Virus record (IMG/VR): IMGVR_UViG_3300023371_000071 | Length of the DNA stretch: 64,000 nt | From: a virus | Taxonomy: Duplodnaviria > Heunggongvirae > Uroviricota > Caudoviricetes | Reading direction: 5' to 3' (one strand) | Position numbers and translations under genes: made by a program | Shown here: positions 1 through 50,954 of the stretch, piece by piece | Position numbering within the stretch: the first letter of the stretch is position 1 | How the letters are laid out: every line of letters begins with the position of its first letter | The notes under the pieces: model-generated | Told to the model about the DNA's origin: nothing | The model's input: the letters and a program-made list of their open reading frames with translations, nothing else | The model's database searches: none

Positions 1-1
1 T

Positions 2-1285
2 CACCACCACGCAGAACCCGACGGACAAGACCCAGCAATAATTGTTAATAACCAGATGTGCGACTATGATAATAAGTGTCTATCTGGTGTTGGTGTAGTC
101 TATAAATTTTGTAAAGTTTTAGATGATCTAATTGGTGTATCATATGCTGACGATTTCCTTGATTTGGTCGCTCTTGGAATGGTTGCTGATATGATGGATT
201 TGCGTTCTTTTGAAACGAAGCGATTGATTGATATTGGATGCACAGAAATTCATAATCCGTTCTTTGTCCATATGGCGAAAAAGAATGATTATTCTATGAA
301 GAGTAAAATTAATCCATTTACAATTTCATTTTATGTAGCTCCATTTATTAATGCAATCACTCGTAGTGGTAATGATGCAGAAAAGTTGCTGATCTTTGAA
401 TCTCTATTAGATCATCGAGCAATGCGATTAATTCCATCTGGTAATCGCAATCGTAAAGGATTAGAAGATTTACTTGTGGTTGAAGCAATCCGCGTTGCTG
501 GTAATGTTAAAAAGCATCAGGATGATGCAAAAGTTAAGGCACTTGATGATTTACGATTCCGCATTAATTCTGGAGAATGCGATTTTGGTATCTTGATTAT
601 CACTCTTGATAATCCTATTGATACCAATCTTACTGGTTTGTTAGCAAACCAAATTATGGCTGAATATGGTAAACCAACTTTGATTTTAAACAAGAGGATA
701 AACAATGAAACAGGAGAAATCACTTGGGAAGGTTCTGGCCGAGGCTTCATTACTCCTCATGTTAATGATTGGCGTGCTTATCTTGAACAATACGCTATGT
801 ATGCAGAAGGTCATGCGATGGCTTTCGGAGTTGGTTTTATCCCTGATCAGCTGACAGACTTTAAGCATTTAATGACCACTAGCCCAATGGATATTACAAA
901 GTCTTATGATGTTGATTTTGTATTCCAAATGACTGATAATTTTGATGCCGACATTCTTGATGTTGCAAAATATGATGAAATGTGGGGTCAAGGTTTAACT
1001 CAGCCGATGGTGGCTATTAAAAATATTTCTTTGAAGAAAGACGACATTCTTCTGCAGGGTAAAGGCACATTAAAACTTAAACTTGGTAATCATCGTACTA
1101 CATGCATTAAGTTTGGTGGAACCGATATTTATAATGAATTACAGTCTTTGTTCCCGTCTGATGATGCTACAATTAAGCTCAATCTAATCGGCACCTGTGC
1201 TTTAAATGATTGGGGTGGAAGCATTTCTCCCCAGCTAAAGCTGGTTGATTATGATGTGTCATATGTAGATACTTGGGGTTTTTAA
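2..1285 (+). CDS. RecJ-like DHH-family ssDNA exonuclease, 5'-truncated at the window edge
   Basis: The frame is open from position 2 and starts with HHH (a DHH motif). 'DLVALGMVADMMDL' matches the RecJ motif DLVALGTVADVVPL. A DHHA1-like region follows. TAA stop. Confidence 0.6.
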   Translation, partial: HHHAEPDGQDPAIIVNNQMCDYDNKCLSGVGVVYKFCKVLDDLIGVSYADDFLDLVALGMVADMMDLRSFETKRLIDIGCTEIHNPFFVHMAKKNDYSMKSKINPFTISFYVAPFINAITRSGNDAEKLLIFESLLDHRAMRLIPSGNRNRKGLEDLLVVEAIRVAGNVKKHQDDAKVKALDDLRFRINSGECDFGILIITLDNPIDTNLTGLLANQIMAEYGKPTLILNKRINNETGEITWEGSGRGFITPHVNDWRAYLEQYAMYAEGHAMAFGVGFIPDQLTDFKHLMTTSPMDITKSYDVDFVFQMTDNFDADILDVAKYDEMWGQGLTQPMVAIKNISLKKDDILLQGKGTLKLKLGNHRTTCIKFGGTDIYNELQSLFPSDDATIKLNLIGTCALNDWGGSISPQLKLVDYDVSYVDTWGF

Positions 1286-1286
1286 T

Positions 1287-1315
1287 TTGACAACTTCAAA
1301 AAGAAATGGTATAAT
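1287..1315 (+). promoter_or_regulatory. Consensus sigma70-type promoter (TTGACA-17nt-TATAAT) upstream of the helicase gene
   Basis: TTGACA at 1287-1292, an exact 17-nt spacer, TATAAT at 1310-1315. The gene start lies about 34 nt downstream. Confidence 0.55.
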
Positions 1316-1348
1316 ATAATTGTAGAAAATAGGAAAGTAGGAACTTAA

Positions 1349-2509
1349 ATGATACTGACTGCTAAGCAAGAAGAAGGTCTTAAGATTGCGGTCAAGCGTT
1401 ATAAGGACCACGAACCTTATACTTGTATTGCTGGTTATGCCGGGACAGGTAAAAGCACACTTATTCGATTTATTATCAGTGCATTGAATATTGATCCTGA
1501 TGATGTGTGTTATGTAGCCTATACCGGCAAAGCCGCGCAGGTTTTGCGTTCAAAAGGATGCCCGAATGCAATGACCGCACATAGATTACTATATAAATCT
1601 GTACAAAAGGATGATGGAACATTTGTTCATTTTCCGAAGCGTCCATTATTTCCTTTTGCTCTAATTGTTGTAGATGAAATTTCCATGCTACCAAAACCAA
1701 TGTGGGAACTTTTATTATCTCATCGAATTCATGTAATCGCTCTTGGTGATCCCGGTCAGCTTCCGCCTGTTATGGCTGAAAGTAATGGTGTGTTGGATAC
1801 CCCGCATATTTTTCTGGATGAAGTTATGCGACAGGCTGCCGAAAGTGAGATTATCCGTTTAACAATGGATATTCGTGCAGGAAAAGGTTTGACTCCTATG
1901 TTGGGCCAAGAGGTAAGAATTGTAGGGCGTGAAGAACTCCTACAACCTGGTTTTCTTGCATGGGGAGATCAGATTATTTGCGGTAAAAATGAAACCCGCA
2001 ATCAAATTAATAGAGTAATGCGACAGATCAAAATGAATACTGAAGGAATTGAACCTTTAGTAGGAGACCGAATTATCTGTCTGCATAATGAATGGGAATG
2101 TATAAATCTAACTGGTGATGCTCTTGTAAATGGTTTGAGTGGCACAATTACTGATTTGAAATATACAAATGATAACCCATTTATGGAGAAAACTCCCATC
2201 ATCGACTTCCAGCCTGATATTGATGACAGTGACACCTTTAGAGGATTAGAAGTCGATTATAAGCTTTTCACTGAACATGTGCCGACTGTGAACAAAGAAA
2301 CCTTCAAGAAAATTCCTAAGTTCTATCGACCCAAGGAGTTTGATTATGGATATTGCATTACTTGCCATAAAGCGCAAGGTAGCGAATATGATAAGGTTAT
2401 TGTTCTTGAGGAATACTTGAGAGGTGAAAGCAAAGATGGTCATTCTCGTTGGCTTTATACTGCTGCTACTCGCGCTGCCAAGAAATTAATTATTGTGAGG
2501 AATTATTAA
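1349..2509 (+). CDS. SF1 DNA helicase, Dda/RecD-like
   Basis: Walker A 'AGYAGTGKST', Walker B 'VVDEISML', and 'CITCHKAQGSEYDKVIV', which is the helicase motif VI found in RecD/Dda/Pif1. At 386 aa it is Dda-sized. Confidence 0.8.
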   Translation: MILTAKQEEGLKIAVKRYKDHEPYTCIAGYAGTGKSTLIRFIISALNIDPDDVCYVAYTGKAAQVLRSKGCPNAMTAHRLLYKSVQKDDGTFVHFPKRPLFPFALIVVDEISMLPKPMWELLLSHRIHVIALGDPGQLPPVMAESNGVLDTPHIFLDEVMRQAAESEIIRLTMDIRAGKGLTPMLGQEVRIVGREELLQPGFLAWGDQIICGKNETRNQINRVMRQIKMNTEGIEPLVGDRIICLHNEWECINLTGDALVNGLSGTITDLKYTNDNPFMEKTPIIDFQPDIDDSDTFRGLEVDYKLFTEHVPTVNKETFKKIPKFYRPKEFDYGYCITCHKAQGSEYDKVIVLEEYLRGESKDGHSRWLYTAATRAAKKLIIVRNY

Positions 2510-3258
2510 TGATTATGATCGCCGGCCCATGCGCCGTGGAAACTGCGACTGACACTTATAAAATCGCAGAGGAATTAAGTAAATATGATAAAAAAATCAT
2601 TCTGCGTGGCGGTTGCTGGAAACCCCGCACTAGACCAGATTCCTTCCAGGGGCTCGGAGAGGTCGGCGTTGATATGCTTGTTGCTGCGTATGAATTATAT
2701 GGACTACAAGGGTGCTGTTTAGAGGTAATGAGTAAAAAACATTTGGATTATGTTATTAATCATTATCCAGAAAAAAACATTATTCTTCAAATTGGCTCTC
2801 GTAATATGCAAAATTTTGAACTACTTAAATTAGTAAGTTCTTATTCTAAGGAATATGGTAATACAGTACTTCTAAAGCGAGGCTTTGGAAATACCGTTGA
2901 TGAAATGTGTGGAGCGAGGGATTATTTACAGCATGACAATGTTATCTTATGTGAGCGTGGTATTAGGACTCTGTCTGATGCTAGTCGTTTCACTTTGGAT
3001 TTGTCCGCCATCCCTGTGTTACAGCAAAAAACTGGGTGTCGAGTTATCGTGGACCCATCCCACGCTGCTGGAGAGAGAAGTCTGGTATCCGGATTGGCAC
3101 GGGCTGGTATCGCCGCAGGAGCAGATGGCTTGGAAATTGAGGTAAAATCAATGTTTGCCAAGTGTCCGCGTAAATGCGATGAAGCACAAGCTCTCCCCAT
3201 AGATGAATTTTATGTTTTAGCACATGTGTGTGAAGATATTGACAAAATCTTAAAATAA
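2509..3258 (+). CDS. 3-deoxy-D-arabino-heptulosonate-7-phosphate (DAHP) synthase, type I-beta-like (KDO8PS/DAHPS fold)
   Basis: 'IAGPCAVE', 'LRGGCWKPRTRPDSFQGLG' (compare Thermotoga DAHPS 'RGGAFKPRTSPYSFQGYG'), 'IGSRNMQNFELLK', 'VILCERGIRT', 'RFTLDLSAIPV', 'VDPSHAAGERSLV', 'AGADGLEIEV'. The ATG at 2509 overlaps the upstream stop (TAATG). GAGG ribosome-binding site. Confidence 0.75.
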   Translation: MIMIAGPCAVETATDTYKIAEELSKYDKKIILRGGCWKPRTRPDSFQGLGEVGVDMLVAAYELYGLQGCCLEVMSKKHLDYVINHYPEKNIILQIGSRNMQNFELLKLVSSYSKEYGNTVLLKRGFGNTVDEMCGARDYLQHDNVILCERGIRTLSDASRFTLDLSAIPVLQQKTGCRVIVDPSHAAGERSLVSGLARAGIAAGADGLEIEVKSMFAKCPRKCDEAQALPIDEFYVLAHVCEDIDKILK

Positions 3259-3278
3259 TAATATAAGAGGTATATAGT

Positions 3279-4283
3279 ATGCAATATGCTGATAGCAAAA
3301 ATTTATTTGACCAACTATCTGAAGATTTTTCCAGAAAGTGTACAACAACTTCTCAGCCTATTAATTATCTAAAATTCTGTAATAACAATGGCCAAATTAA
3401 TACTGATTTGGATATTCAGCGAGGTTACCAATGGGATGAAAAACGTCAGCAAGAGATGTGGAACAGTTTGCTGCTTAATGCTCATATTCCTGAATTCCAT
3501 GCATTAATCCGCAATGATATTTACGACATTATTGATGGTAAACAGCGACTATTAACGATCTTTAAAATCATCAATGATGAAATTCCTCTGAAATACAGCT
3601 ATGCAGGTCCCGAGCTGCACTGGCTTTTTACTCAAGGAAAAAATAAAGATGCTCTTGTCCGACAGATTAATTTTTCTTGTTTACCAAAGGAGTTGCAATA
3701 TCGTATTTATAATACTACGATTTTGATTACTACTTACTCTAATCTTGACAGAGATGAACAAATTATGCTCTTTAAAAAAATTAATAATGGTAAAGCATTA
3801 AGTGATTTTGCAAAAGGATTGTGCGAAAATTTCTTTATCCGCAAGGATGGTACTGCTGAAATGCTAAAGCATTCTGTGTTTAAAAATTCAGAATGGAAAG
3901 ATGAAGAACAAGAGGCAATTGAGAAAGCGTTAGTTCGCTTTATGATTCTTAAGCATAAAAATATGGTAGTTTCTCTAGAACCCACAAAGATGATTAGTTA
4001 CTATCCTGAATTTGATCGTGACGTATTAAATTTGAGCGTTAAGCAAGTAAATGCTGTCTTAGATCGTATTCCCACTTTGCATAAAATTCTTAAATGCCGC
4101 GCTTGGGAATCTTATTTTCCAGCATTTTTAATAGTAGTTGATCGTCATCCTGAGCTTACAGCAGAACAAATTGACACCATGCTTGTAAAAATTCGTTCTT
4201 GTACTGCTGGGCGCGGAGCTGATTTAAGAGCCAGTATTGTTGCTGAACGCATCGACACTGTAGAATCTTTAATTGACAATTAA
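3279..4283 (+). CDS. DUF262 (ParB/GmrSD N-terminal nuclease-like) domain protein
   Basis: 'DLDIQRGYQW' and 'IIDGKQRLLTI' (the DGQQR-type DUF262 motif). No recognizable DUF1524/HNH half. Confidence 0.6.
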   Translation: MQYADSKNLFDQLSEDFSRKCTTTSQPINYLKFCNNNGQINTDLDIQRGYQWDEKRQQEMWNSLLLNAHIPEFHALIRNDIYDIIDGKQRLLTIFKIINDEIPLKYSYAGPELHWLFTQGKNKDALVRQINFSCLPKELQYRIYNTTILITTYSNLDRDEQIMLFKKINNGKALSDFAKGLCENFFIRKDGTAEMLKHSVFKNSEWKDEEQEAIEKALVRFMILKHKNMVVSLEPTKMISYYPEFDRDVLNLSVKQVNAVLDRIPTLHKILKCRAWESYFPAFLIVVDRHPELTAEQIDTMLVKIRSCTAGRGADLRASIVAERIDTVESLIDN

Positions 4284-4301
4284 ACAAAATTATGATATAA
4301 T
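4273..4301 (+). promoter_or_regulatory. Consensus sigma70-type promoter with extended -10 (TTGACA-17-TGaTATAAT) upstream of dnaE
   Basis: TTGACA at 4273-4278, a 17-nt spacer, TG at 4293-94, TATAAT at 4296-4301. The -10 context 'AAATTATGATATAAT' is almost identical to the promoter at 11771. Confidence 0.55.
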
Positions 4302-4328
4302 ATATACAGAAATGATAGAAAGAGGTTC

Positions 4329-7300
4329 TTGGATATGTTTTTTAACTGTCATAATCATACGATGTATTCAAACCTCAGACTTCTGGACTGTATCATCAAA
4401 CCGAAAGACCTAATCGACCGTGCGATCGAATTAGGCCTTTCTGGTATTGCGATTACCGACCATGAAGCACTGAGCGCTCATATGGAAGTAAACATGTATG
4501 CGAAGAAAATTCGTGAAAAGCATCCTAATTTTACTATTGCGCTCGGTAATGAGATTTATTTGACTGACACAAGAGAGAAAGGTCAGCCATACTATCACTT
4601 TATTTTGATTGCTAAAGATGCTATTGGTCACAAAGGTTTGCGTGAGCTTAGCTCTAAGGCATGGTATAATTCTTATTTTGATCGAGGTATGGAGCGTGTT
4701 CCTCTGCTCAAGAGCGAGTTAGAAGAAATTATGACTCGATACAAAGGTCATATTATGGGTACTACTGCCTGTATGGGCGGTGAGCTGTCTAAACTGATTG
4801 TGGAATATCAGATTCTCAAAGAAATGAATCAGCCCAATCAGGAAATATTTTATAAGATGCAGGATTTCATTCAGTTCTGCATGAGAGTATTTGGTCCAGA
4901 TGATTTCTATATTGAATGTGCGCCATCTACAATGAAAGATCAGATCATGGTCAATCGGTGTCTCGGTGAAATGGCACAACTTTATGGATTGAATTTGGTG
5001 CCGGCTACCGACTCTCATTATCTCAGTCCTGAAACAAGATTTGCGCATAAGGCATATTTGAACTCTAAGGGCGGAGATCGAGAAGTTGATAGCTTCTATG
5101 AATTTGCGCGTTTGATGGATGAAAAAGAAGTGAGAGAACTTCTACTTCATTCTTTTGAAGAAACTACTGTTGATATGATGATGCATATGACAGAAGATAT
5201 GCGTCAGAAAATTGAGTGGTATTCTTTGGAAAAACCGCAGCAGATTCCTGTTGTAGAAGTTCCAACTAGAAACGCTGGCTTTCTTGGGTGGGGAATTTGG
5301 CAAGAATATCCCACGCTTTATGATATTAACCTTAATGGCAATGAACAAGAGCAATATTGGCTTGATTGTTGCATGGAAGCTTTGGTAAATAAAGGACTTG
5401 GTGAAGATGTCTACCTCGAAAGACTCGAAATTGAAGCAGACGTTATTCGATATATTGGCAATCGTCTTGGGACTTGTTTGTTTGCCTACTTTAATACTTT
5501 CAAGCACTATATTGATTTGTTCTGGGAGTGTGGTAGCATCGTCGGTCCTGGCCGTGGATCTGCCACTGGTTTTCTGTCTAATTATCTCCTTGGTATTACT
5601 CAGCTAAATCCTATCAAGTGGAATCTTCCTTGGTGGCGTTTCTTGAATAAAGAACGTGCGGAATTGCCTGATATTGATATCGACCTTGCTCCTTCCAAGC
5701 GAGCTGAAATCTTTCAGCGTATTCGTGAAGAACGTGGAGAAATGGGACTGATTCAGGTTATTACATTCGGTACTGAAGGTTCTAAGTCTGCAATCTTGAC
5801 CGCCTGTCGTGGTTATAGAATGTTAGATGAAGATGGAATTGAAATGTTTCCTGATGGTATTGATGTTGACGTCGCTCAGTATATTGCATCTTTGATTCCA
5901 TCCCATCGCGGTTTCCTTTGGAGCATCAAGGATGTTGTATATGGCAATAAGGATGAAGATCGTCAGCCTATTGCCGCATTCAAGAGAGAAGTTGACAAGT
6001 ATCCTGGACTTTTAGATATTATCTTTGCGATTGAAGGAATCGTGAAGCAGCGTGGTTGTCATGCATCTGGTGTCATTATGTATGAAGAGGATAAGATTTA
6101 TGACACCGCGGCGATTATGAGAACTCCTTCTGGTGATCTTGTAACCTGTTATGACCTTCACATGGCAGAGGCTGCTGGTGACACTAAATACGACTTCCTT
6201 GTAACCGAAGTTTCTGACAAAATCATTAAGGCTCTTGAACTGATGCAAGAGGATGAAGTAATTGATCCTGATATGAGTTTGCGTCAGATGTATGAAGAGT
6301 TCTTGCATCCTGAGCATATTGATACAACCGATCCCGAAATTTGGGAAGCACTTGCAGAGGGTAGCGTATTGGATGTATTCCAGTTCAGCGGTGGCGTTGG
6401 TTTGGCGATTGCAAAGAAGCTTCGTCCAACTGATCCTCTGGAAATGACCGCAGCGAATGCAATGATGAGACTTATGTCTGAAAAGGGTAAAGAGTCTCAG
6501 CAGGATAGATATGCTCGTATCAAGAGTCAAGGAATCAGAGTCTTCGATATGGAAATGAAAGAGCATAATCTGCCGAACAGCATGATTAAAGCAATGCATA
6601 AACATTGCGACAAGTATTATGGCTGTTGCGCAATTCAGGAACAGATGATGGAGATTCTGATGGATCCTGAGATTGCAAGTTTCAGTTTGAAAGAGGCAAA
6701 TGATGCTCGTAAGATTGTTGCTAAGAAGCAAATGTCTCGTATTCCCGAGCTTAAAGGTAAGGTTTATGATGTAATGGATCAGCGACTCGCTGACTATGTG
6801 TGGGAAGTTGCGGTAGCTCCTCAGTTGGGTTATGCATTCTCCATGAATCACTCTCTGCCTTATTCTTTCGTCGGTATTCAGACAATTATCTTAGCACGAA
6901 AGTTTGATCCGATTTATTGGAACACTGCATGTTTGATTGTAAACAGTGGTGCAACAGATGAAGATCTTGAAGGTACAACGAACTATGGAAAAATCGCAAA
7001 AGCCATTGGTGACATTCGAAGTGCAGGAATTGCAGTCTCCACGGCAGACATTAATAAATCTAAATATGGATTTTCTCCAGACGTTGGAGAGGGCACAATC
7101 ACCTACGGACTTAAAGGTCTACTCAATGTTGGAGACGATGTCATCGCAGACATTATTGACAAACGCCCTTTCACTAGCTTCGGAGATTTCCTTGGCAGAG
7201 TCAAGTGCGGAAAACAGGCAGTAATTTCTCTTATCAAGGGTGGCGCATTTGATAGCTTTGGTGAGCGTAAGCGCATTATGGCTGAATATTTGTGGTTGAA

Positions 7301-8189
7301 CTGCGATAAGAAAAAGAGAATCACACTTCAGAATATGAATGGTTTGATTCAAAGAGGTCTGCTGCCTGATCATCTTAGTCTGCAGAGCAAGGTTTTTGAG
7401 TTTAATCGTTACTTGAAAAATGTATGTAAGTTGACTGACGGTTATTATGTTCTGGATGATAGAGCGTATGGATTCATCGACAGATTCTTCCCTGATGTTC
7501 CTCTGGAAGTATTTGGTCCGACTTATGCAATGAATCAGAAGTTGTGGGAAAAGGTATATCAACAGCAAATGGATTTTGTGCGTGAGTGGATGAAAGCTAA
7601 TCAGGACGAAGTTCTATATCAGCTGAATAAGAACATTTTTGAGGAAGAGTGGAAGAAATATGCTTCTGGTAATTATTCTTCTTGGGAAATGGAAGCATTA
7701 TGTTTCTATTATCATGAGCATGAGTTGAAGAACGTCAATCGCGCACGATATGGAATTAGCAATTTCTTCGATCTGCCAGAAGAGCCGATTATCGAAAAGA
7801 CATTTAAGCGTGGCGGTATTGAAATTCCGATTTATCGTTTGAATAGAATCTGCGGCACATGCATCGCTAAGAATAAAACAAAAGGTACAGTATCTCTGTT
7901 GACTCCTGAGGGTGTTGTCGAAGTTAAGTTTAGAAATGAATATTTCAGTTTGTTCGACAAGCAGATTTCTGTGCGTGGCGCTGATGGCGTAAAGCATGTT
8001 GTGGAAAAGTCTTGGTTCAATCGTGGTTCTATGATTATGGTAACTGGTATTCGCCGTGGTGATGATTTCATTCCGAAGAAATATGCAAGCACAGTTGGTC
8101 ATCAGCTGTATAAGATTGAAAACATCACTTCTAATGGTAGCCTGACTCTTAAAACGGAGCGCGCAAGCGGGGAGGCCGAAGAAGAATGA
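4329..8189 (+). CDS. dnaE: DNA polymerase III alpha subunit (DnaE-type, PHP domain plus polymerase core)
   Basis: N-terminal PHP motifs 'CHNHTMYS' and 'ITDHEAL'; the hallmark 'GPGRGSATGFLSNYLLGITQLNPI'; 1286 aa; TGA stop. Confidence 0.9.
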   Translation: MDMFFNCHNHTMYSNLRLLDCIIKPKDLIDRAIELGLSGIAITDHEALSAHMEVNMYAKKIREKHPNFTIALGNEIYLTDTREKGQPYYHFILIAKDAIGHKGLRELSSKAWYNSYFDRGMERVPLLKSELEEIMTRYKGHIMGTTACMGGELSKLIVEYQILKEMNQPNQEIFYKMQDFIQFCMRVFGPDDFYIECAPSTMKDQIMVNRCLGEMAQLYGLNLVPATDSHYLSPETRFAHKAYLNSKGGDREVDSFYEFARLMDEKEVRELLLHSFEETTVDMMMHMTEDMRQKIEWYSLEKPQQIPVVEVPTRNAGFLGWGIWQEYPTLYDINLNGNEQEQYWLDCCMEALVNKGLGEDVYLERLEIEADVIRYIGNRLGTCLFAYFNTFKHYIDLFWECGSIVGPGRGSATGFLSNYLLGITQLNPIKWNLPWWRFLNKERAELPDIDIDLAPSKRAEIFQRIREERGEMGLIQVITFGTEGSKSAILTACRGYRMLDEDGIEMFPDGIDVDVAQYIASLIPSHRGFLWSIKDVVYGNKDEDRQPIAAFKREVDKYPGLLDIIFAIEGIVKQRGCHASGVIMYEEDKIYDTAAIMRTPSGDLVTCYDLHMAEAAGDTKYDFLVTEVSDKIIKALELMQEDEVIDPDMSLRQMYEEFLHPEHIDTTDPEIWEALAEGSVLDVFQFSGGVGLAIAKKLRPTDPLEMTAANAMMRLMSEKGKESQQDRYARIKSQGIRVFDMEMKEHNLPNSMIKAMHKHCDKYYGCCAIQEQMMEILMDPEIASFSLKEANDARKIVAKKQMSRIPELKGKVYDVMDQRLADYVWEVAVAPQLGYAFSMNHSLPYSFVGIQTIILARKFDPIYWNTACLIVNSGATDEDLEGTTNYGKIAKAIGDIRSAGIAVSTADINKSKYGFSPDVGEGTITYGLKGLLNVGDDVIADIIDKRPFTSFGDFLGRVKCGKQAVISLIKGGAFDSFGERKRIMAEYLWLNCDKKKRITLQNMNGLIQRGLLPDHLSLQSKVFEFNRYLKNVCKLTDGYYVLDDRAYGFIDRFFPDVPLEVFGPTYAMNQKLWEKVYQQQMDFVREWMKANQDEVLYQLNKNIFEEEWKKYASGNYSSWEMEALCFYYHEHELKNVNRARYGISNFFDLPEEPIIEKTFKRGGIEIPIYRLNRICGTCIAKNKTKGTVSLLTPEGVVEVKFRNEYFSLFDKQISVRGADGVKHVVEKSWFNRGSMIMVTGIRRGDDFIPKKYASTVGHQLYKIENITSNGSLTLKTERASGEAEEE

Positions 8190-8410
8190 TGAACGAGAAA
8201 GTGATGAAGTGGCGATCGTCGCCACTTCATCGTAAATGTATTTTTTGTAAACACTTAAAATTTATAACCATACCGGCTCATCTGCCATGTAATGATTACT
8301 ATAAATGTGTTGCTAAAGACAAATATATTGATTATTGTTTGCCAGATATGACAAGAGCTCCAAGACCGTTTTGTAAATTATTTGAATTAAATACGGAGAT
8401 AAAAGAATGA
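8186..8410 (+). CDS. Small Cys-rich hypothetical protein, possibly a zinc-binding fold
   Basis: ATGA overlap with the dnaE stop suggests translational coupling. 7 Cys and 3 His in 74 aa. No recognizable homologue. Confidence 0.35.
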   Translation: MMNEKVMKWRSSPLHRKCIFCKHLKFITIPAHLPCNDYYKCVAKDKYIDYCLPDMTRAPRPFCKLFELNTEIKE

Positions 8411-9003
8411 AATATATTGTAGCACTTATTGGCAAGGCAGGAGCGGGAAAAGATACAATTGCTCAGGGCTTAGCTACACTCAATCCTGACTGGAATATGA
8501 TTGTCTCTTGTACAACCCGCCCTCGTCGAGAAAATGAAGTTGAAGGTATCAACTATTATTATCTTACAAATGAGGAGTTTGCGCAGAAAGTACTGAATGG
8601 CGATATGCTTGAAGCTACTTATTTCAACGATTGGCATTATGGTACTATGGCTTCTTCTCTTCACGAAGGTGTAAACATTGGTGTTTTCAATCCTGAAGGC
8701 TACGATTGTCTTACAGAGATGGGCGGCGGAGAAATCAAAGTTATTGGCTTCTATATCAATAGCGATGATAAAACTCGTCTACTGCGCCAGCTTAATCGCG
8801 AAGAAAACCCTGATGTTCATGAGATCGTCCGCCGCTTTAGCGCAGATGAAGAAGATTTTTATGATATTGATAACGATCCAGACTATCCTGTATATGTAAT
8901 TCAAAATGGAAGAGATACTTCTCTACCATATGTTGTACATGAAGTCAATAAAATCATTCACGCGGTTCTAGATATTGTGCCTCTTGTGGGCAGTCATGAA
9001 TAA
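8407..9003 (+). CDS. gmk: Guanylate kinase-like (d)NMP kinase
   Basis: P-loop 'GKAGAGKDT'. The guanylate-kinase signature 'TTRPRRENEVEGINYYYLTNEEF' (compare TTRPPRPGEVDGVDYHFV). 'YFNDWHYGT'. ATGA overlap with the upstream gene. Confidence 0.65.
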   Translation: MKYIVALIGKAGAGKDTIAQGLATLNPDWNMIVSCTTRPRRENEVEGINYYYLTNEEFAQKVLNGDMLEATYFNDWHYGTMASSLHEGVNIGVFNPEGYDCLTEMGGGEIKVIGFYINSDDKTRLLRQLNREENPDVHEIVRRFSADEEDFYDIDNDPDYPVYVIQNGRDTSLPYVVHEVNKIIHAVLDIVPLVGSHE

Positions 9004-9066
9004 TTTATTGGGCGAAATTTTGAAATATCATGTCTACCCTATTTTATAACTCAGGAGGTCAATGAA

Positions 9067-18683: not shown

Positions 18684-19364
18684 TTAGTTTGCTGGTGGAG
18701 GTGGTGGAGGCGGGGGAGGATTACATCCACACTCCTCGGGTTTACTTCCATTCCAATCAGAGTTTTTTGGCCCTTCCTCAGGCTTTACTAAACCAAGCGC
18801 AGTTAAATAAGTTTGAGAAAGGCGAAGAGAAGCAGGACGAGACTGACGCCAAGATCTGAGTTCTTTAACAATGCTAGAAGAAGCTTGCATTAATTCAAGA
18901 TAACCAGCGCCCATTTGTGCCAATGTATATGTTGGCGCAAGAGTGTCTTGAATCAAACCAATGCGCTGGGCAATAGTCTGACTACGTTCATCTTCTGGAC
19001 CATTAGACAATTTAAAGTCTAAATAGTTACCAAATACAGAGCAATATTGATGAACAATCGCGCACCAGGCACTCATAAAATCATTCCAGGGAAGCTTATC
19101 CTCAGTAAGAATAAGAGTTGGAAATTCATGTTCAATACGAATGAACATGTCTAAAGTGTCCTGAGAAATTGTAAATGCACCATCGTCCTCTCCCGGTTCC
19201 CAAGCTGTGATGGCATCAATTTGCTCCAATACTCTAATCATAATTAATGAAAGTTGCGGCTGAATGGCTGTTAAAATACGACCAATAGGACCCAAAGTAT
19301 CAATTTCTTTCATCACATGATAGCGGGCCTCGCCATAAGAAAAATTACGAATTTCAGTTAACAT
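18684..19364 (-). CDS. Hypothetical protein with C-terminal Cys-Gly-Cys plus poly-proline tail (CGCNPPPPPPPPPAN)
   Basis: 226-aa ORF overlapping the rSAM-2 stop by 11 nt. The C-terminus is encoded by a G-rich tract at about 18690-18730. Confidence 0.45.
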   Translation of the reverse strand: MLTEIRNFSYGEARYHVMKEIDTLGPIGRILTAIQPQLSLIMIRVLEQIDAITAWEPGEDDGAFTISQDTLDMFIRIEHEFPTLILTEDKLPWNDFMSAWCAIVHQYCSVFGNYLDFKLSNGPEDERSQTIAQRIGLIQDTLAPTYTLAQMGAGYLELMQASSSIVKELRSWRQSRPASLRLSQTYLTALGLVKPEEGPKNSDWNGSKPEECGCNPPPPPPPPPAN

Positions 19365-20742
19365 TTAACTCCGTTACCTCCTCAAGATATTTGAATTGCA
19401 CTTTCTTTTCTTCAGACAAATCTCTCCAAACTACACTCCACACCCCATGTTCTTGTAGCCATTTCATTTCAGTATAAATCATAGCATGAGCTACTGCACA
19501 TACAGTAGGAATTGGAGTAATTAAATTACGAGTGCATTCATATTGAGCACCAAGACAGGTGCCAGTACATAATTCATTAATAGGACATTGCGCACAATGC
19601 GGCAAAGATGCTTTATGCATAGAATATGTTGAAATTAACAATTCCGGATTGATGCATTCAAATTTCAAAATTTCTTTTTCATCAGGCACCAATTTACCAT
19701 AATACATATCTTCATATCCTGTGCGGTGACATGGATACATCATTAAGTCACTTACACGTAATGTAAATTGGCTTTGAATACCGCAGGTAAGACCACGTCC
19801 ACAAGTTGTTAAAGGCTGACTAAACATATTAAAACCATTTGCTTTAACTAACCAGCCTGCCATAGCATATGGATCTTTATTAATTTTATTTTCCCATACC
19901 CAATCAAGAACAAATCTCATAAATTTACACAAAGACTGAACTTGATCATAATTCCATTCTTCATTGCGGACATGCAATAAATACAGGCTCTCCCATGGGA
20001 TATTGTGTTTTTCCATCATTTCTTGGAACCACAAGAAATTTTGAGGCCATGCATCAATATTTCTACTATATACCATTGGATGCAAGCCACCATGAATCAT
20101 ATGAGAAAATTGAAATGCACGATCATAGTACTCGTCATCTCGCACACCACCACCCAAATCCACATCTAGATCATGTAGATAAGGACGATTGTCTTCCATA
20201 TATTTTCCATCAAAACTCGCACTAAGACCTAGAGTAATACCTATACTTTCGAATTTAGCATGAAGTTCTTTTACTCTTGCAGTTGCTTCTTCAGAACACA
20301 CAAAAGTAAAATTAGTAGGAATTACAATTTCAATTGGACGATATAAAGGATCTAAATCCTTAAAATGTTCATAAATAGTTTCTAATACTTTATATCCAAC
20401 TTCTTGAGCTAATAATTCACCAGAGAAAATTTCAATGTTAGCGTTCCAATCATTATGAGTGTACCATTGTAAAATAGTTTTTAGATTTTCAATAGTACGC
20501 TCTTCGTTGAAACAATCTTCACTAAAAATCTTTTTGCGATGACGATGTAAATAACAATATCTACAACCTAAATTGCAACGCGGTGAAATAATTAACTCAA
20601 TATTTTTCATTTTCTGATCTCTTGGGGTATCAATAGAGAAATCATCATAAAAATATTTCTCAATTACCCAAGCGCCCAATTCATGATTTTCTTTTTGATA
20701 TTGAGACAAACCAGTATCATTTACATTGCAATGCTCGGCCAT
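19354..20742 (-). CDS. Radical SAM enzyme with C-terminal SPASM domain (rSAM-2)
   Basis: 'CNLGCRYCY' (CxxxCxxC). C-terminal 'CAQCPINELCTGTC' (Cx2Cx5Cx3C SPASM motif) with further Cys residues. GAGGAG ribosome-binding site. Confidence 0.8.
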   Translation of the reverse strand: MAEHCNVNDTGLSQYQKENHELGAWVIEKYFYDDFSIDTPRDQKMKNIELIISPRCNLGCRYCYLHRHRKKIFSEDCFNEERTIENLKTILQWYTHNDWNANIEIFSGELLAQEVGYKVLETIYEHFKDLDPLYRPIEIVIPTNFTFVCSEEATARVKELHAKFESIGITLGLSASFDGKYMEDNRPYLHDLDVDLGGGVRDDEYYDRAFQFSHMIHGGLHPMVYSRNIDAWPQNFLWFQEMMEKHNIPWESLYLLHVRNEEWNYDQVQSLCKFMRFVLDWVWENKINKDPYAMAGWLVKANGFNMFSQPLTTCGRGLTCGIQSQFTLRVSDLMMYPCHRTGYEDMYYGKLVPDEKEILKFECINPELLISTYSMHKASLPHCAQCPINELCTGTCLGAQYECTRNLITPIPTVCAVAHAMIYTEMKWLQEHGVWSVVWRDLSEEKKVQFKYLEEVTELNVN

Positions 20743-22133
20743 GGTTTCATCGCTCCTCTATTTACTAAAATTTTATAATATCGCATCATTTCTTCCACAG
20801 CACCATTGCCTAATAAACGCAAATAACTGCAAGGTACAATAGAAGGATTAGTTGTATAGTCTTCCTCAACGCCAATATGACAATATAATCCACAAGTCAT
20901 CATAAACATTAATAAACGATCATCTTCATTATATGCATATTTACTGTTGATTTGTCCAGCGCAAGCCATTGTTACAGCCATTTGATCAAAGAAATATTTT
21001 CTAGACATAATATCGGCATGGAAAGACATAGAACCATAAGTGCGTTTCATCCAAACCTTATCATTAGTATTCATATTACATCCACTTTGCATTGCATGCT
21101 TAGTCTTCATTTTTTCATCAAGAGCTGCATTACGACAGAGACGATTACAAGTATAAATATTTCCTTCATGATCAATAGTAATATTATTCTTACTAGCGGA
21201 ACAAGAATAAGAATTTTCTTGTGTCGCAATAGGATTGCCAGCTTCTGCTTGGAAAAATACTTCAGGTCCATTAAATAATTGACCAAAAAGAGGGCGACCA
21301 TCATAGCAAGGTTTATCTTGTACATTTACTCTCGGTAAAAAGCTAAGCCATTTTGCAAATGTCTCACCATCTTCTTGAGTATAATAGCCTGGGTCAACCA
21401 AAGTTGGGCAACCCGCAATTTGTAAACTAATATTTTTTTTACCTTCAATTAATTTATCGCATTCAACTTGTAAATCATTGAAGAATTTATAATACCAGTT
21501 AAATGAATCAATTCCTCTCTCATTCATAATTTTCATATAACTAACATCTAATGTAGCTTTAGTATTAATTACAAGAGAGAAATATTCCATATCTGCAGGA
21601 CAACGAGTTAAAATTTCTTTCATAGTTTTAATTGTGCTCGCAGTCGCTCCAGGATGACGAGAATCATCATTAAATTCAGGTGGACCATCTAAAGACATTT
21701 GAAGATTAAAAGTGATTTTACGTTTGTGGTGAGTTGCATAAACCATCATTGGCAAGAAAAAATCTTCATAAATGCGATCGCCCAAAAGAGCATTAGTAGA
21801 AAACATTACATCTTTAGCATTTGGATAATAGTCAAATAATGCTTCAAATGTTGCTCGCCAGTACTGACTATTAATTGTAGGTTCTGCGCCCCACAAACTT
21901 ACATTTTCAATAGCATCACGGATGCCTGCGGTGACACGTTTAACATTTTCTACAAAAGTTCCATCTTCAAGTGCTTGACGAATATCTCTATTATAAGAAG
22001 CCATGCACTTTTTTTCTTTTTCAATATAACAATATTTACATGCCATATTGCAATCTGATGACCAGTGTAGGCTGACGCTGGCTATATTAGCCAGCGCTTC
22101 GCCTAAATAATCAAGAGAAGGAATTTGTTTCAT
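20721..22133 (-). CDS. Radical SAM enzyme with SPASM/twitch-like Cys-rich C-terminus (rSAM-1)
   Basis: 'CNMACKYCY'. C-terminal 'CSASKNNITIDHEGNIYTC' (C-x13-GxxxxC) and 'CNRLC...CGLYCHIG...PC'. GAGAGGAG ribosome-binding site. Overlaps rSAM-2 by 22 nt. Confidence 0.8.
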   Translation of the reverse strand: MKQIPSLDYLGEALANIASVSLHWSSDCNMACKYCYIEKEKKCMASYNRDIRQALEDGTFVENVKRVTAGIRDAIENVSLWGAEPTINSQYWRATFEALFDYYPNAKDVMFSTNALLGDRIYEDFFLPMMVYATHHKRKITFNLQMSLDGPPEFNDDSRHPGATASTIKTMKEILTRCPADMEYFSLVINTKATLDVSYMKIMNERGIDSFNWYYKFFNDLQVECDKLIEGKKNISLQIAGCPTLVDPGYYTQEDGETFAKWLSFLPRVNVQDKPCYDGRPLFGQLFNGPEVFFQAEAGNPIATQENSYSCSASKNNITIDHEGNIYTCNRLCRNAALDEKMKTKHAMQSGCNMNTNDKVWMKRTYGSMSFHADIMSRKYFFDQMAVTMACAGQINSKYAYNEDDRLLMFMMTCGLYCHIGVEEDYTTNPSIVPCSYLRLLGNGAVEEMMRYYKILVNRGAMKPWPSIAM

Positions 22134-22154
22134 ATCTCCGTTTTCTCCTCTCGC

Positions 22155-23648
22155 TTAATTCGAGTAATTTCTTGAATAATAATTACTAGTATAATTACCA
22201 GTTTTATTGCCAGAATTATATGTAGAATAGTTACCAGACTTATAAGTGGTATGATAACCTGTCTTATAGCTAGTATAATCCGCGGTATCATAACTATGAT
22301 TGGTGCCATTATGAGAACTCTTGGCGCCACTGTCATTAGAAGAATAATAACTTCCATGATGGGAGGTATAATCCGCGCTATCATAGCTATAATTACTCGT
22401 TTTATAAGTTGTATAATGCGTTTTTGCGCTTGCATTATAACCACCATGATTACTTGTGTAATCTGCACTATCGTGAGAATATTTTCCACCATAGTGAGTA
22501 GTATAATTTGCGCCTTTTGCAGATGCATTATAAGTAGCAAAATTGCTGCCATTATATCCGGCATAATGAGTGTACTTTCCACTGTTATATCCAGTATAAT
22601 CTCCACCATTAGCAGATGCGTAATATGAGCCTTTGTGCGTAGCATAGTTTGTGCTATGATAGGCATAATTACCACCATTGTGGACGGAATAATGTGCATT
22701 TGCTGTTGTATAATATCCGCCAAAATTATTAGTATTATAAGAACTTAAGTGACCAACTTTTTCACTCTAATAATGTGTACTATTATGACCAGATTTATGT
22801 GTAATATAATATGTTTCATAATGAGCAGTATTTTGCCCAGTATAATGATTAACATAATAAGAAGTTTTTACTGTGGCATTATAATTAGTATAGTTTGCAG
22901 TATCATAAGTTACATAATGAGTAGTATAATATGTGGCATTATTTGAAGTATTGTAGCCTGCATAATGGCTATATTTTTGCGCACCATTATGTGTATCAAA
23001 TTCAGTACTAAATTGATTACCAAAATGATCTGGACAATGTGAAGTATTATAAATTTGATAGTGCGTAGTATAATAATTAGTATAATACGCTTTATGGTTA
23101 CTACTATAATCCGCAGACTTATGAAGACGATTGCCCGTATAATAAGTTCCATGGAACTAATAATGAGCACTCTTATACGTTACATAATTTGTTGTATTAT
23201 GTTCATAATTTCCACCAAAATAAGAATAATAATGAGTACCATTATGAGTAGTATAATAATCTGCATAATGATTCGTATAATAACTTGCATTATGACCATA
23301 TCGATGACTGTTAAAATACTCAGTATAATAAGAATTATGCCAAGCTGTCCAGTTATTAATATCATATCCGGTATAATAATTTACTAAATGCCCTGTATAA
23401 TAAGCATCATTATATCCAGATTTATGACCTGATTTATAAGATGAAAGATGCCCGTTATAATATGTACCTTTTTCACCATTGTGATGGGTAGCATAATGTC
23501 CACTATAATGTGAACTTAAATGTCCGCTCAAGTGCCCTGAATAATATGCAGGGCAATGAGCAGCTTCTTGGGCCTAAATTGCAGTTAATGGATTATTTAA
23601 GTCAGAAGGAATAATTTTATTTCCTTTGACTGCTGTTGAAGTCGCCAT
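22155..23648 (-). CDS. Tyr/Ser/Thr/Asn/His/Gly-rich low-complexity tandem-repeat protein 2 (about 497 aa), with 3 in-frame TAGs
   Basis: ATG at 23646-48 with AAAGGAGG 9 nt upstream. Frame-continuous through TAGs at 23574, 23157 and 22768 to a TAA at 22155. Sequence of the type '...GHLSSHYSGHYATHHNGEKGTYYNGHLSSYKSGH...' with no aliphatic residues. The antisense and off-frame ORFs in the ORF track are I/M/V-rich mirror images. Confidence 0.6.
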
Positions 23649-25060
23649 TGTGGATTATTCCTCCTTTTTATTAAGTTACAGTAACATTATGCGATTTATT
23701 ACCAGCACGATAAGCGGTATAATTAGAAGTATTATAAGTGCCATAATTAGCAGTATAATAACCTGTCTTATAATTACTATGGTTACCACTATTATAACCA
23801 CTCCAGTGAGAATTACGAGCAGCATTTTGACCACTATTATAAGAGCTATCATGTCCACTCTTATTACCTGAATAATGACCACTATTATATCCGCTCCAGT
23901 GAGAACGCTGTGCAGTTAAATTAGAGTTATTATATGTTGCATAGTTACCGCTTAAATGACTTGTATAATAACCACTATTATAACCACTCCAATGATTATT
24001 ATAAGTGGAATAATTTGAACCATTATGACTGGTGTAATGACCACTTAAATGTCCTGTATAATTACCATTATTTTCAGAGCTTCTATGAGAAGTATATACA
24101 GTCTTATTATGATTAGTGTAATGCGTAGCATAATAACCACTTAAATGCCCTGTATAATCACCTGCATTGTGAGATACATAATGAGCTCTATAACCAGTTT
24201 GATATCCCATATTATGACTAGAATATCGTCCTGTATAATGAGTAGTATAATTATTACTATTATAAGTTGAATAATGATTATTTTTTCCTGTGTATTGAGC
24301 AGTATAATTAGAGCTTAAATAGCCAGAATTGTATCCAGTATAATTAGCTGCATCACGACTAGTGTATTGAGTACCATTATGCCCTGAATAATGCGTTTTT
24401 TGTCCTGCTTTATTTGTACTATTATAGGTCGAATAATGAGTTGTATAATTAGTAGTTTTTGCTCCACTATTATAGGTGGAATAATGAGAGCTTCTGTGAG
24501 CATAATCATATGTTTCAAAATGACTATCATAAGCAACAGCACGGTGAGATTTTGCTCCAATATGATAAGTGGTATATTGAGTACCGTAATAGCCAGTATA
24601 ATGACTATTTTGATTAGTATAATGACTATAATAATAATTATTATAATTAGTACTCTTATAAGAACTATCATGTGAACTATAATAACCACTATAATATTCT
24701 GCATTATGACTTTCAAATTCTGCCGCTCTATGATAAAAATGACTTTTTTCAGTAGTATTGCGAGTTGTATAATGAGTTGCATAATAAGTAGCATTTCTAC
24801 CGCTGTAATGTGGAGCAAAATACGTATTATAATGAGCTTCACGATGAGCAGAATAATAAATACCACATGCTGCCCAGTTATCAAAATATTGCCAATTACT
24901 ATGATGAGATCCATAGAAATCGGAATTATGAGTTGTATAATAGCTACTATAATGACTACTCTTATAACTACTTTCTCTGCCGCTATAATATGTTGCATTA
25001 TATGAAGTATATTGTGTTGCATAAACCGTAGATTTATGCGCATTTAAATATCCTGCATTA
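22155..25060 (-). repeat. Degenerate coding tandem repeats (TAT/TAC-, AGT/TCT-, CAT-, AAT-rich) spanning both Tyr-rich genes
   Basis: About 2.9 kb of extreme low complexity. All three frames on both strands stay open except at TAG. Repeat unit roughly 5-8 codons of the form x-Y-x-[ST]-[GN]-H. Confidence 0.7.
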
Positions 25061-25287
25061 TAAGCGGCACAACCGTAATTGATAGAACCAGCTTGGCTAT
25101 CAATAACATCCGATAATTCTTTAGGCGAATTATAATTTAATTTAGAATTATAAACTGCAATAGGATCATGTTGCCAATTATATTTGGCTAAACCCAATTT
25201 ATCAGTTCTAAAATTATCAATTCGATTTCGAACTAATAAATAATCAGAATATGCAGTTTTCTAACCCGTTGAAACTGGTACCGCCAT
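23671..25287 (-). CDS. Tyr/Ser/Thr/Asn/His/Gly-rich low-complexity tandem-repeat protein 1 (about 538 aa), with 1 in-frame TAG
   Basis: ATG at 25285-87 with AAGGAGGG 6 nt upstream. TAG at 25261. Non-repetitive N-terminus of about 85 aa ('MAVPVSTGQKTAYSDYLLVRNRIDNFRTDKLGLAKYNWQHDP...'), then [S/G/T/N]-Y-x-[S/T/G]-H-type repeats. TAA stop. Confidence 0.65.
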
Positions 25288-25316
25288 TCGTTCGCCCTCC
25301 TTTATCTCTATAAAAT

Positions 25317-25345
25317 ATTATAACAAAAATTTTTATCTATGTCAA
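25317..25345 (-). promoter_or_regulatory. Consensus sigma70-type promoter (TTGACA-17-TATAAT) driving the Tyr-rich/rSAM operon
   Basis: On the minus strand: TTGACA (reverse complement of 25340-45), an exact 17-nt spacer, TATAAT (reverse complement of 25317-22). The ribosome-binding site and ATG of Tyr-rich gene 1 lie about 25 nt downstream. Confidence 0.55.
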
Positions 25346-28500: not shown

Positions 28501-29902
28501 CATTAAGTTTAGAAGCAGAAGTGGCATTACCACTGAATGTAGTTGCATATACAGTTCCTTGCGCATAAATATTCTTCCATCTAGCAGTATCTGTACCAAG
28601 ACTATATGTATTATGTGCAGAAGGATTAATATGTTGAGCAGTGGTAGTTCCACCAATTGTAGCACCACTCGCACCAATTTCTGCCTTTTTAGCAACAATA
28701 GTTTCACCAAATGTTGCACCACCAGTAACGGTTAATGCTTGTGTAGCATGATTACTACCAATAACTGCTGTTCCAGTACTTGTTAACTTTGCAGAAGCAG
28801 TAATATATGGAGCAGAAATAGTGCCTTCAGAACTAATATTTCCAACCGCTGCAATAGTAGAAGATGCACTTATAGCACCAGTAAAAGAAGATGTTTCAGT
28901 TACAGCAAGAGTGCTTTGTAATGTGGTTGCGCCAGTTGCTTTTAAAGTTCCATTAGCAACAATATTTTTTAAATTTGCAACGCCAGCTCCACTAACATAA
29001 TATGTTGTACCACCAAAATATAAAGAAGTGCCTGACGCTACAGTTGTTTTATTATTTAAAGCTACTGTATTAGTAAAAGTAGTAGCTCCATTGAAAGCCG
29101 CAGTTCCAGAGGCGGTCAAATTAGAAGCAATAGCTACAGGAACCGCTGCGATGTTTAATGTATTTGTTGTGTCAGAAAGAGTTTGATAAATAATAAATTG
29201 AGAGGCTTTATTATCAAAGATACCTCTTGTTACAGAAGTTGCTTTCATTTGCCATCCATGAGAACTGTTTTTCACATTAACATAAGCATCTCCACTAGAA
29301 GTGTTGATTGTTAATGGACCAGTCATCGTATCGCCATCAATATTCACATATAAATCATCTAAAGCAGCTTCACAGTTTGTTAAAAAATTATTAACTGTTA
29401 AAATCGGACTATTATTGTGATATAAATTGCTAGCATCACTTGTATATAAATACAACCCTCCAACTTGAGGATTTGTAGATTCTGCCAAACTTAAAATTGC
29501 CTTACCAGCGCTATCTTTAATAGCTTGCCCACTACTAAGAGTGACACCAGAAGACAGAACAGGGGAGGACTTAAAAGTCTTCACTCCATAAATTTCTTGA
29601 GCAACTAAGCTCAAAACACCAGAATGGTCTGATGAAGCATATGGCAATTCTCTAATTGCCTCTTGACCACCAACTTCTAATTTAATACAGCTGGCTTTTT
29701 CATCGTCGCCATCTGCTTTCACAAAAGTGATTACAGGCGCACCTGTTAATAAATCTGCGTACTAAGCATTTAACGGCACTCTCTCTGTGGCAGTATCAAT
29801 ATAAAACTTACCATTATCAGGAGTAAAATAAGCATAACCTTCAGTTATTTTTTGATTACCTAAGCTTGCCGCAGGACCTTTAAAAATCTTAAAAAGAGCC
29901 AA
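25568..29902 (-). CDS. Tail fibre / receptor-binding protein (about 1444 aa), with 4 in-frame TAGs
   Basis: ORFs 27962-29722, 26396-27412, 25868-26269 and 25568-25828 all share a frame and are joined by TAGs at 29762, 27962, 26396 and 25868. Putative TTG start at 29900 with GGGGAGGG upstream. Thr/Gly/Ala/Ser-rich beta-strand repeats. TAA stop. Confidence 0.6.
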
Positions 29903-29933
29903 TCTTCAGCCCTCCCCTGCTTATTTATTATTC

Positions 29934-50952: not shown

Positions 50953-50954
50953 TC

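Follow-up and report, generated by a model that had tools for sequence, protein, structure and literature searches.

Why should a phage carry, within its replication module, a gene for the entry enzyme of aromatic amino-acid synthesis? [quoted passage not shown] As judged from its sequence and a predicted structure, this product is the catalytic barrel of a type I-beta DAHP synthase (DAHPS), and not a 3-deoxy-D-manno-octulosonate 8-phosphate (KDO8P) synthase (KDO8PS). The gene is an accessory gene of one phage sub-lineage, residing in a cargo hotspot outside the replication machinery. On balance, we favor the view that it acts as a feedback-insensitive auxiliary metabolic gene (AMG), which feeds the shikimate pathway of the host.

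Assignment of the product to the type I-beta DAHP synthases

The ORF was confirmed at the position given for it in a preliminary description of the window, although its product comprises 249 rather than 250 amino acids, the 249 codons being followed by TAA TAA. The protein begins with MIMIAGPC, which leaves seven residues ahead of the catalytic Cys. As the preceding sequence encodes the conserved C-terminus of a helicase in another frame, there is no room for an N-terminal extension. A TTG at 2449 was considered as upstream start and rejected, since this would create an out-of-frame overlap with the conserved helicase C-terminus, and all members of the clade begin with MI(M/K)IAGPC.

All six motifs previously named as hallmarks of type I-beta DAHPS were recovered: GPC at residues 6-8 with E11, LLKRG (121-125), CERG (148-151), DPSH (182-185), GADG (204-207) and the KPRT-type motif KPRTRPDSFQGLG at residues 38-50. 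The fifth residue of the latter motif is R, not S; it is R, K or D within the clade and also variable in cellular homologs. Pfam family DAHP_synth_1 (PF00793) was matched with 153 bits (E 7e-45; cut-off 25.5) and the NCBIfam models TIGR01361 and PRK08673 with 223.6 and 248.1 bits, respectively, whereas profile models for KDO8PS scored 30-51 bits against their cut-offs of 242-457. Sequence searches of the PDB likewise returned the DAH7P synthases (DAH7PS) of Pyrococcus furiosus, Aeropyrum pernix and Thermotoga maritima with 163-189 bits versus at most 27 bits for KDO8PS chains.

An AlphaFold2 model built on 21 homologs predicts a complete (β/α)8 barrel of eight strand-helix units with a predicted local distance difference test score of 89.7 and a predicted template-modelling (TM) score of 0.89; low confidence is limited to the β2-α2 loop (residues 42-46) and a loop near residue 155. 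When the model was searched with Foldseek, DAH7PS structures ranked first (TM 0.82-0.85, 37-46% identity), the best structural match being P. furiosus DAH7PS (TM 0.83, 46% identity); KDO8PS structures showed 22-24% identity. The predicted metal ligands, the conservation of which had been proposed as a check, are all retained in the alignment with phage and cellular homologs (21 sequences): C8, H185 and D224 are invariant, E211 is nearly so, and all align with their P. furiosus equivalents. Invariant or nearly invariant are also the substrate-binding residues R33, K38-P39-R40-T41, Q94, G96, R98, K123, R124, C148-E149-R150-G151 and R153. The motifs predicted to bind phosphoenolpyruvate (PEP) and erythrose-4-phosphate (E4P) are K38-P-R-T41, Q94-I-G-S-R98, K123-R124 and C148-E-R-G151. 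The hydrophobic position corresponding to I181 in the tetramer interface of the P. furiosus enzyme is kept as L165.

A phylogeny of I-beta DAHPS against KDO8PS had been proposed as a further check. In a neighbour-joining tree, the phage clade was monophyletic and placed on the DAHPS side, clearly apart from KDO8PS-like viral genes and separate also from a viral clade linked to cytidylyltransferases. The enzyme is thus predicted, from sequence and model, to form DAH7P from PEP and E4P with the help of a divalent metal.

A barrel without hairpin and regulatory modules

Type I-beta enzymes owe their allostery to extra modules attached to the barrel at either terminus (PMC8408635). No such module was found when the product was inspected for feedback-regulatory domains, i.e. 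neither a ferredoxin-like nor a chorismate-mutase domain is present. In this respect the phage protein equals the DAH7PS of P. furiosus (PDB 1ZCO, 4C1K) and A. pernix (1VS1), unadorned barrels that are described as unregulated (PMC6435475) and with which it shares the fold (TM 0.82-0.83, 45-46% identity), the Cys/His/Glu/Asp metal site and the KPRT, QIG(A/S)R, LLKRG, CERG and DPSH motifs. It differs from them in that it is phage-encoded, lacks an N-terminal β-hairpin of ~25 residues, reads EVK where they have EVH, shows KPRTR in place of KPRTS, and has two short insertions and added Cys residues (GGCW, GCC). The engineered core-only I-beta enzyme of T. maritima, from which the ferredoxin-like domain was removed (PDB 3PG8), aligns with the phage protein across the whole barrel; however, it still has ~30 residues including the hairpin before GPC, a segment that is missing in the phage protein. 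The truncated T. maritima enzyme, described by Cross and colleagues in 2011, reportedly remains active and loses inhibition by Tyr. Among the architectures compared, the phage protein is the smallest DAHPS, a bare barrel even without the hairpin.

Several observations weigh against a functional DAHPS serving aromatic synthesis. The DAHPS scores stay under the curated NCBIfam cut-offs (267.75 for TIGR01361 and 335 for PRK08673), which is mainly due to the absent N-terminal segment (hairpin, regulatory domain), the match starting at model position 26 of 260 and 96 of 338, respectively. The missing hairpin is present in every solved DAHPS that was matched, 23-143 residues preceding the aligned part in these chains. 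At the conserved His of EVH, all members of the clade have K, R, S or T; the clade also has the two insertions as lineage-specific traits and the extra Cys (GGCW for GGAF, GCC). Moreover, the I-beta barrel of Prevotella nigrescens loses most of its activity once parted from its chorismate-mutase domain (PMC8408635). Finally, the 64-kb window revealed no other shikimate-pathway gene, nor did the relatives within 10 kb, so that any benefit of the DAHPS would depend wholly on downstream enzymes of the host. As to the changes in architecture, we argue that they are compatible with activity, because the KDO8PS of Aquifex aeolicus is naturally hairpin-less and because the cellular homolog P0088 is hairpin-less and carries EVK as well. 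The gene for P0088 immediately follows one for chorismate mutase; the contig also carries FtsZ and aminoacyl-tRNA synthetases.

The gene is old cargo at a helicase-polymerase junction

The locus comprises the following features:

1287-1315 (+): putative sigma-70-like promoter, TTGACA-17-TATAAT with extended -10 TG, 12/12 consensus match, just 5' of the helicase gene
1349-2509 (+): Dda/PIF1-like superfamily 1 helicase (PHROG 325, Dda-like helicase, 324 bits), the upstream operon partner
2498-2511 (+): Shine-Dalgarno motif GAGGA and TAATG stop/start overlap, read from the sequence; junction conserved
2509-3258 (+): minimal type I-beta DAHP (DAH7P) synthase barrel, 249 amino acids, as predicted from profiles, model, alignment and tree
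3279-4283 (+): DUF262/GmrSD_N-domain protein, a second, independently variable cargo gene (domain match, synteny)
4273-4301 (+): second putative sigma-70-like promoter with extended -10, 12/12 consensus match, just 5' of the PolIII alpha gene, at the downstream edge of the cargo slot
4329-8189 (+): PolIII alpha gene, flanking the cargo slot downstream

Translational coupling of helicase and DAHPS, as claimed before, is borne out by the junction: the DAHPS ATG (2509-2511) overlaps the helicase stop codon (2507-2509) in the sequence TAATG (2507-2511), and the GAGGA motif (2498-2502) ends 6 nucleotides 5' of the ATG. The coupled junction is kept as TAATG, TGATG or TAA(N)ATG in every relative examined, and helicase-DAHPS synteny is present in loci L001, L003, L006, L008 and L092. 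Placement in an early operon stood up as well, given the co-directional block of replication genes, the overlap with the helicase gene and the sigma-70-like promoter upstream. The promoter calls are consensus matches only, and the total of promoter-like sites in the region is not above shuffled expectation; 12/12 matches occur at two sites only, each just upstream of a gene start, and both sites are presumed to work as promoters. No convincing terminator was found between 1287-1315 and 4273-4301. Therefore, helicase, DAHPS-like and DUF262 genes look like one early transcription unit for an RNA polymerase of host type, which is likely driven by the promoter at 1287-1315.

The surroundings correspond to an SP-beta-like replication module with YorF, AAA_24, YorH, DnaB, RecJ-like, Dda-like helicase, DAHPS and sometimes DUF262, which continues with PolIII alpha, guanylate kinase, NrdD/NrdG and dUTPase. 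Late genes, among them those for baseplate and endolysin, are likewise encoded in the window. In most relatives, PolIII alpha follows the helicase directly. DAHPS is present in 2 of 79 IMG/VR relatives retrieved by helicase alignment (L096 and L097, the same contigs as those of L008 and L009) and in none of the 49 members of an overlapping IMG/VR set; in all, IMG/VR contains 439 relatives by helicase. As the gene is rare and the slot holds unrelated genes elsewhere, the helicase-polymerase junction is a hotspot for accessory genes, with DAHPS as one cargo, and there is no need to tie the enzyme to replication or DNA modification. As expected of an AMG, the enzyme is of host type, flanked by phage genes (helicase, PolIII alpha), outside the core set and absent in 77 of the 79 relatives. 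A function as core replication component or DNA-modification enzyme was rejected, since hardly any relative has the gene and the other cargo of the slot is unrelated.

In other relatives, the slot between helicase and PolIII alpha was seen to contain two Xan_ur_permease transporters (xanthine/uracil-family, nucleobase), Dam-type and N6/N4 methyltransferases, DUF5131 and GIY-YIG endonucleases. The phage-encoded nucleobase permeases may merit study of their own. Cargo at this junction was located at:

L050, 7241-9962
L075, 7447-8836
L053, 7688-8161
L061, 7366-8214
L057, 10044-10952

The DUF262 gene occurs in L006 (38% identical), L007, L092 and L093 but not in L001, L003 and L008. Its product in the window has no recognizable C-terminal nuclease domain and may act in defence, anti-defence or sensing of DNA modification. 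In three loci, PolIII alpha itself is apparently split with intervening GIY-YIG ORFs (L057, 8002-9855 and 11140-13131; L088, 4811-6022 and 7009-8760; L089, 8144-9466 and 10024-12090), suggesting invasion by introns or homing elements.

How long has the phage lineage owned the enzyme? Close homologs share 58-92% identity and are all ~250 amino acids long, and every context read was a phage replication module, some of the contigs being 170-190 kb long. Beyond this clade, identity falls to at most 51%, the next homologs being cellular enzymes of unrelated phyla. In the 185,579 species genomes that were scanned, nothing exceeded 47% identity, and recent capture from a host was rejected for this reason. 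Pairwise dN/dS within the clade is 0.12-0.23, with dS from 0.7 to saturation (above 2), indicating purifying selection on the protein. Identical copies of the protein sequence turned up in 33 blocks of the assembly collection, of which 18 have contigs of 50-200 kb. The distribution of homologs and the substitution pattern mark the gene as an old, selected and phage-resident one and not as a recent host fragment.

Proposed role in the infected cell

In the role that we favor, the DAHPS gene would be transcribed with the early replication genes from the host-type promoter, coupled in translation to the helicase. In the infected cell, its product would condense PEP and E4P. Since it is without N- and C-terminal allosteric modules, the enzyme should ignore feedback by Tyr, Phe, prephenate and chorismate. 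It would keep or raise the carbon flux into the host shikimate pathway where host regulation would throttle it, and host enzymes would complete the route to chorismate and then to aromatic amino acids or other chorismate products. Candidate sinks would be aromatic amino acids generally, Tyr in particular, or precursors of folate and quinones. Metabolic engineers apply the same trick with feedback-resistant aroG. Enzyme activity, insensitivity to feedback and benefit for the phage are predictions of this reading. A link to folate or thymidylate metabolism was considered and rejected, as no thyA, thyX, folA or pab was seen over the 64-kb window.

Two other viral I-beta genes (L018, L020) adjoin a chorismate mutase gene, which shows that the family does serve aromatic synthesis in phages. 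The logic of the proposed role is also that of the unregulated isozymes for secondary metabolism in Pseudomonas aeruginosa (PhzC/PA1901), extra DAH7PS that ignore aromatic feedback to meet a specialised demand (PMC6435475). However, these are type II enzymes encoded inside a biosynthetic gene cluster, which defines the sink, whereas the phage gene is of type I-beta and has no pathway partner nearby.

Phage DAHPS as AMG has been reported for Klebsiella phage KLB31 (PMC11845039), DAHPS (K01626) for a groundwater virome (PMC13303688) and shikimate genes for gut phages (PMC12180181). The concept behind KLB31, PHROG 5045 and the K01626 virome DAHPS is the same, namely a phage-borne first shikimate step hypothesised to boost aromatic amino acids. 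PHROG 5045, though, is matched weakly and only in part (63 bits, best stretch residues 1-133). A tblastn search of 50,697 phage records gave 12 weak matches, all with at most 44% identity, in unannotated and possibly host-contaminated records and with no Klebsiella phage among them. Known isolate phages therefore probably carry a different DAHPS subtype. Megablast of window positions 1-12000 against isolate phages gave no match, and no biochemically characterised phage DAHPS was found in the literature. Phage DAHPS genes are thus already annotated as AMGs; what this gene adds is a diverged I-beta lineage, without counterpart in the isolate phages searched and trimmed beyond any solved DAHPS.

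Alternative readings

Among the alternatives, the one that survives best, which we nonetheless regard as unlikely, holds that the enzyme condenses PEP with another aldose phosphate (arabinose-5-phosphate, ribose-5-phosphate or another) to yield KDO8P or a different 3-deoxy-ulosonate for modification of glycans or surfaces. A KDO8PS-like role in sugar-acid metabolism had also been raised in the preliminary description. KDO8PS are distinguished by KANRS from DAHPS with their KPRT. In its build, the phage protein does resemble the metallo-KDO8PS of A. aeolicus (PDB 1FWN and others): both belong to the same superfamily, share the Cys/His/Glu/Asp metal site (TM ~0.82) and lack the N-terminal hairpin, query residue 2 aligning to chain residue 5. 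In addition, the unadorned P. furiosus enzyme is reported to be substrate-ambiguous (Schofield 2005, as cited in PMC6435475), KDO8PS of giant viruses are the sole family members in the viral structure library, and viral family members L011, L021 and L024 adjoin GT29-like and CMP-cytidylyltransferase genes, L016 even being a cytidylyltransferase fusion. Nevertheless, identity to the A. aeolicus enzyme, which has the KANRS-type motif and, for arabinose-5-phosphate, a long L7 loop, amounts to 22-24%, and the DAHPS profiles score about five times higher than those for KDO8PS (224-248 versus 51 bits). The motif is of the KPRT and not of the KANRS type, and the clade sits on the DAHPS side of the tree, apart from both the KDO8PS-like and the cytidylyltransferase-linked viral clades. 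Moreover, no cytidylyltransferase, glycosyltransferase, isomerase or phosphatase partner is found in the early block of the window or in the relatives; for the clade of the window, neither chorismate mutase nor sugar-acid partner genes were detected in the window or its relatives. SP-beta-like replication genes and endolysins with SpoIID, NlpC/P60, SH3 and PG_binding domains suggest a host of Gram-positive type, which would not need Kdo. These results disfavor KDO8PS and leave the DAHPS assignment standing.

The viral loci with sugar-acid neighbors form a system of their own. In L011 (8533-10690), L021 (4290-6480) and L024 (3861-6155), a gene for a hairpin-less DAHPS-like enzyme whose motif reads KPRSSP precedes GT29 sialyltransferase-like, CMP-cytidylyltransferase and MurB-like genes. 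In L016 (6718-10723), a cytidylyltransferase-DAHPS fusion adjoins a gene resembling dehydroquinate synthase. The four loci look like a phage pathway for 3-deoxy-ulosonic-acid glycans that employs a DAHPS-type, not a KDO8PS- or NeuB-type, synthase.

A second alternative starts from the late region of the window, which encodes Tyr-rich proteins next to radical S-adenosylmethionine (radical-SAM) enzymes:

18684-25317 (-): Tyr-rich/radical-SAM cassette, between baseplate-like genes and the endolysin gene
20721-22133 and 19354-20742 (-): two radical-SAM genes with C-terminal Cys clusters, next to the Tyr-rich ORFs
L095, 3992-9168; L176, 2-4997; L177, 2302-5926: cassette in relatives; absent in L094

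The preliminary description had counted about 1,000 Tyr-rich codons with 20-25% Tyr and suspected a link to the DAHPS. The ORFs are real (~960 codons, 22155-25197 (-)), but the share of Tyr is lower, i.e. 17.5-21.8%. One frame at ~23654-22155 (-) extends over 500 codons interrupted by three TAGs only, which makes the region larger than standard ORF calling shows; the second ORF lies at 23671-25197 (-) and encodes 508 amino acids. Together they specify 178 Tyr in 963 codons. The Tyr-rich protein of the cassette is of low complexity and rich in Tyr, Ser, Asn, Thr and His, and the cassette further includes a 226-amino-acid protein that ends in a run of ten prolines. JGI gives some homologs of the radical-SAM proteins the name 'radical SAM protein with 4Fe4S-binding SPASM domain', and the family of the second enzyme (rSAM2) comprises 402 clusters, many on contigs of 100-275 kb. 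The cassette may specify a fibre or coat protein modified by radical-SAM enzymes.

Does the DAHPS then exist specifically to supply Tyr for these proteins (~960 codons, 18% Tyr), which the two neighboring radical-SAM enzymes probably modify? We consider this improbable. The same low standing applies to the fuller version, by which the minimal DAHPS would be functionally coupled to the cassette, early deregulation of the shikimate pathway supplying Tyr for distal fibre or baseplate-associated proteins rich in Tyr, His, Ser and Asn that are cross-linked or modified by two SPASM-like radical-SAM enzymes. In favor of a Tyr supply, all three DAHPS phages with a readable late region carry the cassette (the window, ena:ERZ27268078:k141_521073 and logan:ERR10692484_3023), and in the two relatives, the contigs that bear DAHPS also bear the two radical-SAM genes, with Tyr-rich ORFs (17-23% Tyr) upstream of these. 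Direct proof that a phage with DAHPS is without the cassette was not obtained for any case, and early synthesis of DAHPS ahead of the late Tyr-rich proteins would fit in timing. However, the three phages are close relatives (helicases 61-89% identical), so that their co-occurrences amount to about one independent observation and are what shared ancestry alone would give. The IMG/VR contig 3300045988_149268 (165.7 kb) carries the full cassette (15% Tyr; the two radical-SAM proteins, rSAM1 and rSAM2, 53% and 56% identical to those of the window) and no DAHPS: its helicase and polymerase genes are separated by a 0.6-kb gap, and an IMG/VR-wide scan for the DAHPS motif gave no match there. In 3300045988_168855, the cassette is wholly absent. 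Conversely, the 16 IMG/VR contigs with rSAM2, as found with an alignment of 17 sequences (an alignment of two gave one contig), do not include the 173-kb contig of L008, which thus probably has DAHPS without the cassette. No matches came from IMG/VR searches that used rSAM1 or the Tyr-rich protein as single query, and an endolysin search returned two loci only. The radical-SAM family is also far wider (402 clusters) than the DAHPS clade (~11 clusters), and one set of Tyr-rich proteins requires 178 Tyr as compared to ~1,000 Tyr in a single copy of each product of the window. Because the cassette is found without DAHPS and the two differ in distribution, they are independently mobile. The suspected link is therefore not upheld; DAHPS and cassette are separate accessory modules that co-occur in close relatives only.

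Very improbable, finally, is a non-biosynthetic protein, be it a drain on PEP and E4P for host takeover, a non-catalytic structural or regulatory factor or neutral hitch-hiking cargo: the hotspot does collect selfish elements (GIY-YIG endonucleases) and the protein deviates from the canon (no hairpin, EVK for EVH), but strong purifying selection with all catalytic ligands invariant down to 57% identity, long residence in phages and recurrence of the exact sequence in 33 collection blocks speak against it, and in a non-catalytic role, conservation of four metal ligands and of the PEP-binding residues would be needless. The feedback-insensitive AMG feeding host aromatic synthesis thus remains the reading that we favor.

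Apparent recoding of TAG in the late genes

A separate observation concerns the late genes of the window (16329-63999, minus strand), in which TAG is apparently recoded. When TAA and TGA only are taken as stops, 57481-63999 (-) reads as 2,173 codons with 24 in-frame TAGs and 51367-57381 (-) as 2,005 codons with 18 TAGs. Further late frames interrupted by TAG under the same rule are:

45245-47977 (-)
47944-50964 (-)
25568-29905 (-)
22155-23654 (-)
16329-18311 (-)

Homology to relatives runs through the TAG positions, and relatives share stops at the same sites. Residues aligned to TAGs of the window are most commonly Q and K, and in-frame stops of the relatives align mostly with Q, then E. The endolysin ORF at 16329-18311 (-), with SH3_3 and PG_binding domains, reaches ~160 codons upstream of the annotated ATG through three TAGs; its homologs in L177, L095 and L094 align across these, and relatives add SpoIID and NlpC/P60 domains. 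TAG-to-Gln recoding is known in gut phages, and the alignments suggest that the late genes of the window probably follow the same scheme. The early plus-strand genes of the window, including DAHPS, have no in-frame TAG. ARAGORN found no tRNA in the window, so that no suppressor tRNA can be tied to the observation. In some relatives, the early helicase gene itself carries an in-frame TAG (L063, codon 210; L067, codon 213; L075, codon 20; locus position 6001 onward), and recoding is therefore not restricted to late genes in these loci.

Implications

Phage DAHPS genes are already listed as AMGs and the chemistry of the enzyme is textbook knowledge, hence no new category is opened by this gene. 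The bare barrel would be a useful test of the part that the N-terminal hairpin plays in catalysis and assembly, and a compact candidate for pathway engineering. If active, it would provide a natural example, from a phage of the anaerobic gut or rumen type, of a virus opening the committed step of aromatic synthesis with a feedback-proof DAHP synthase.

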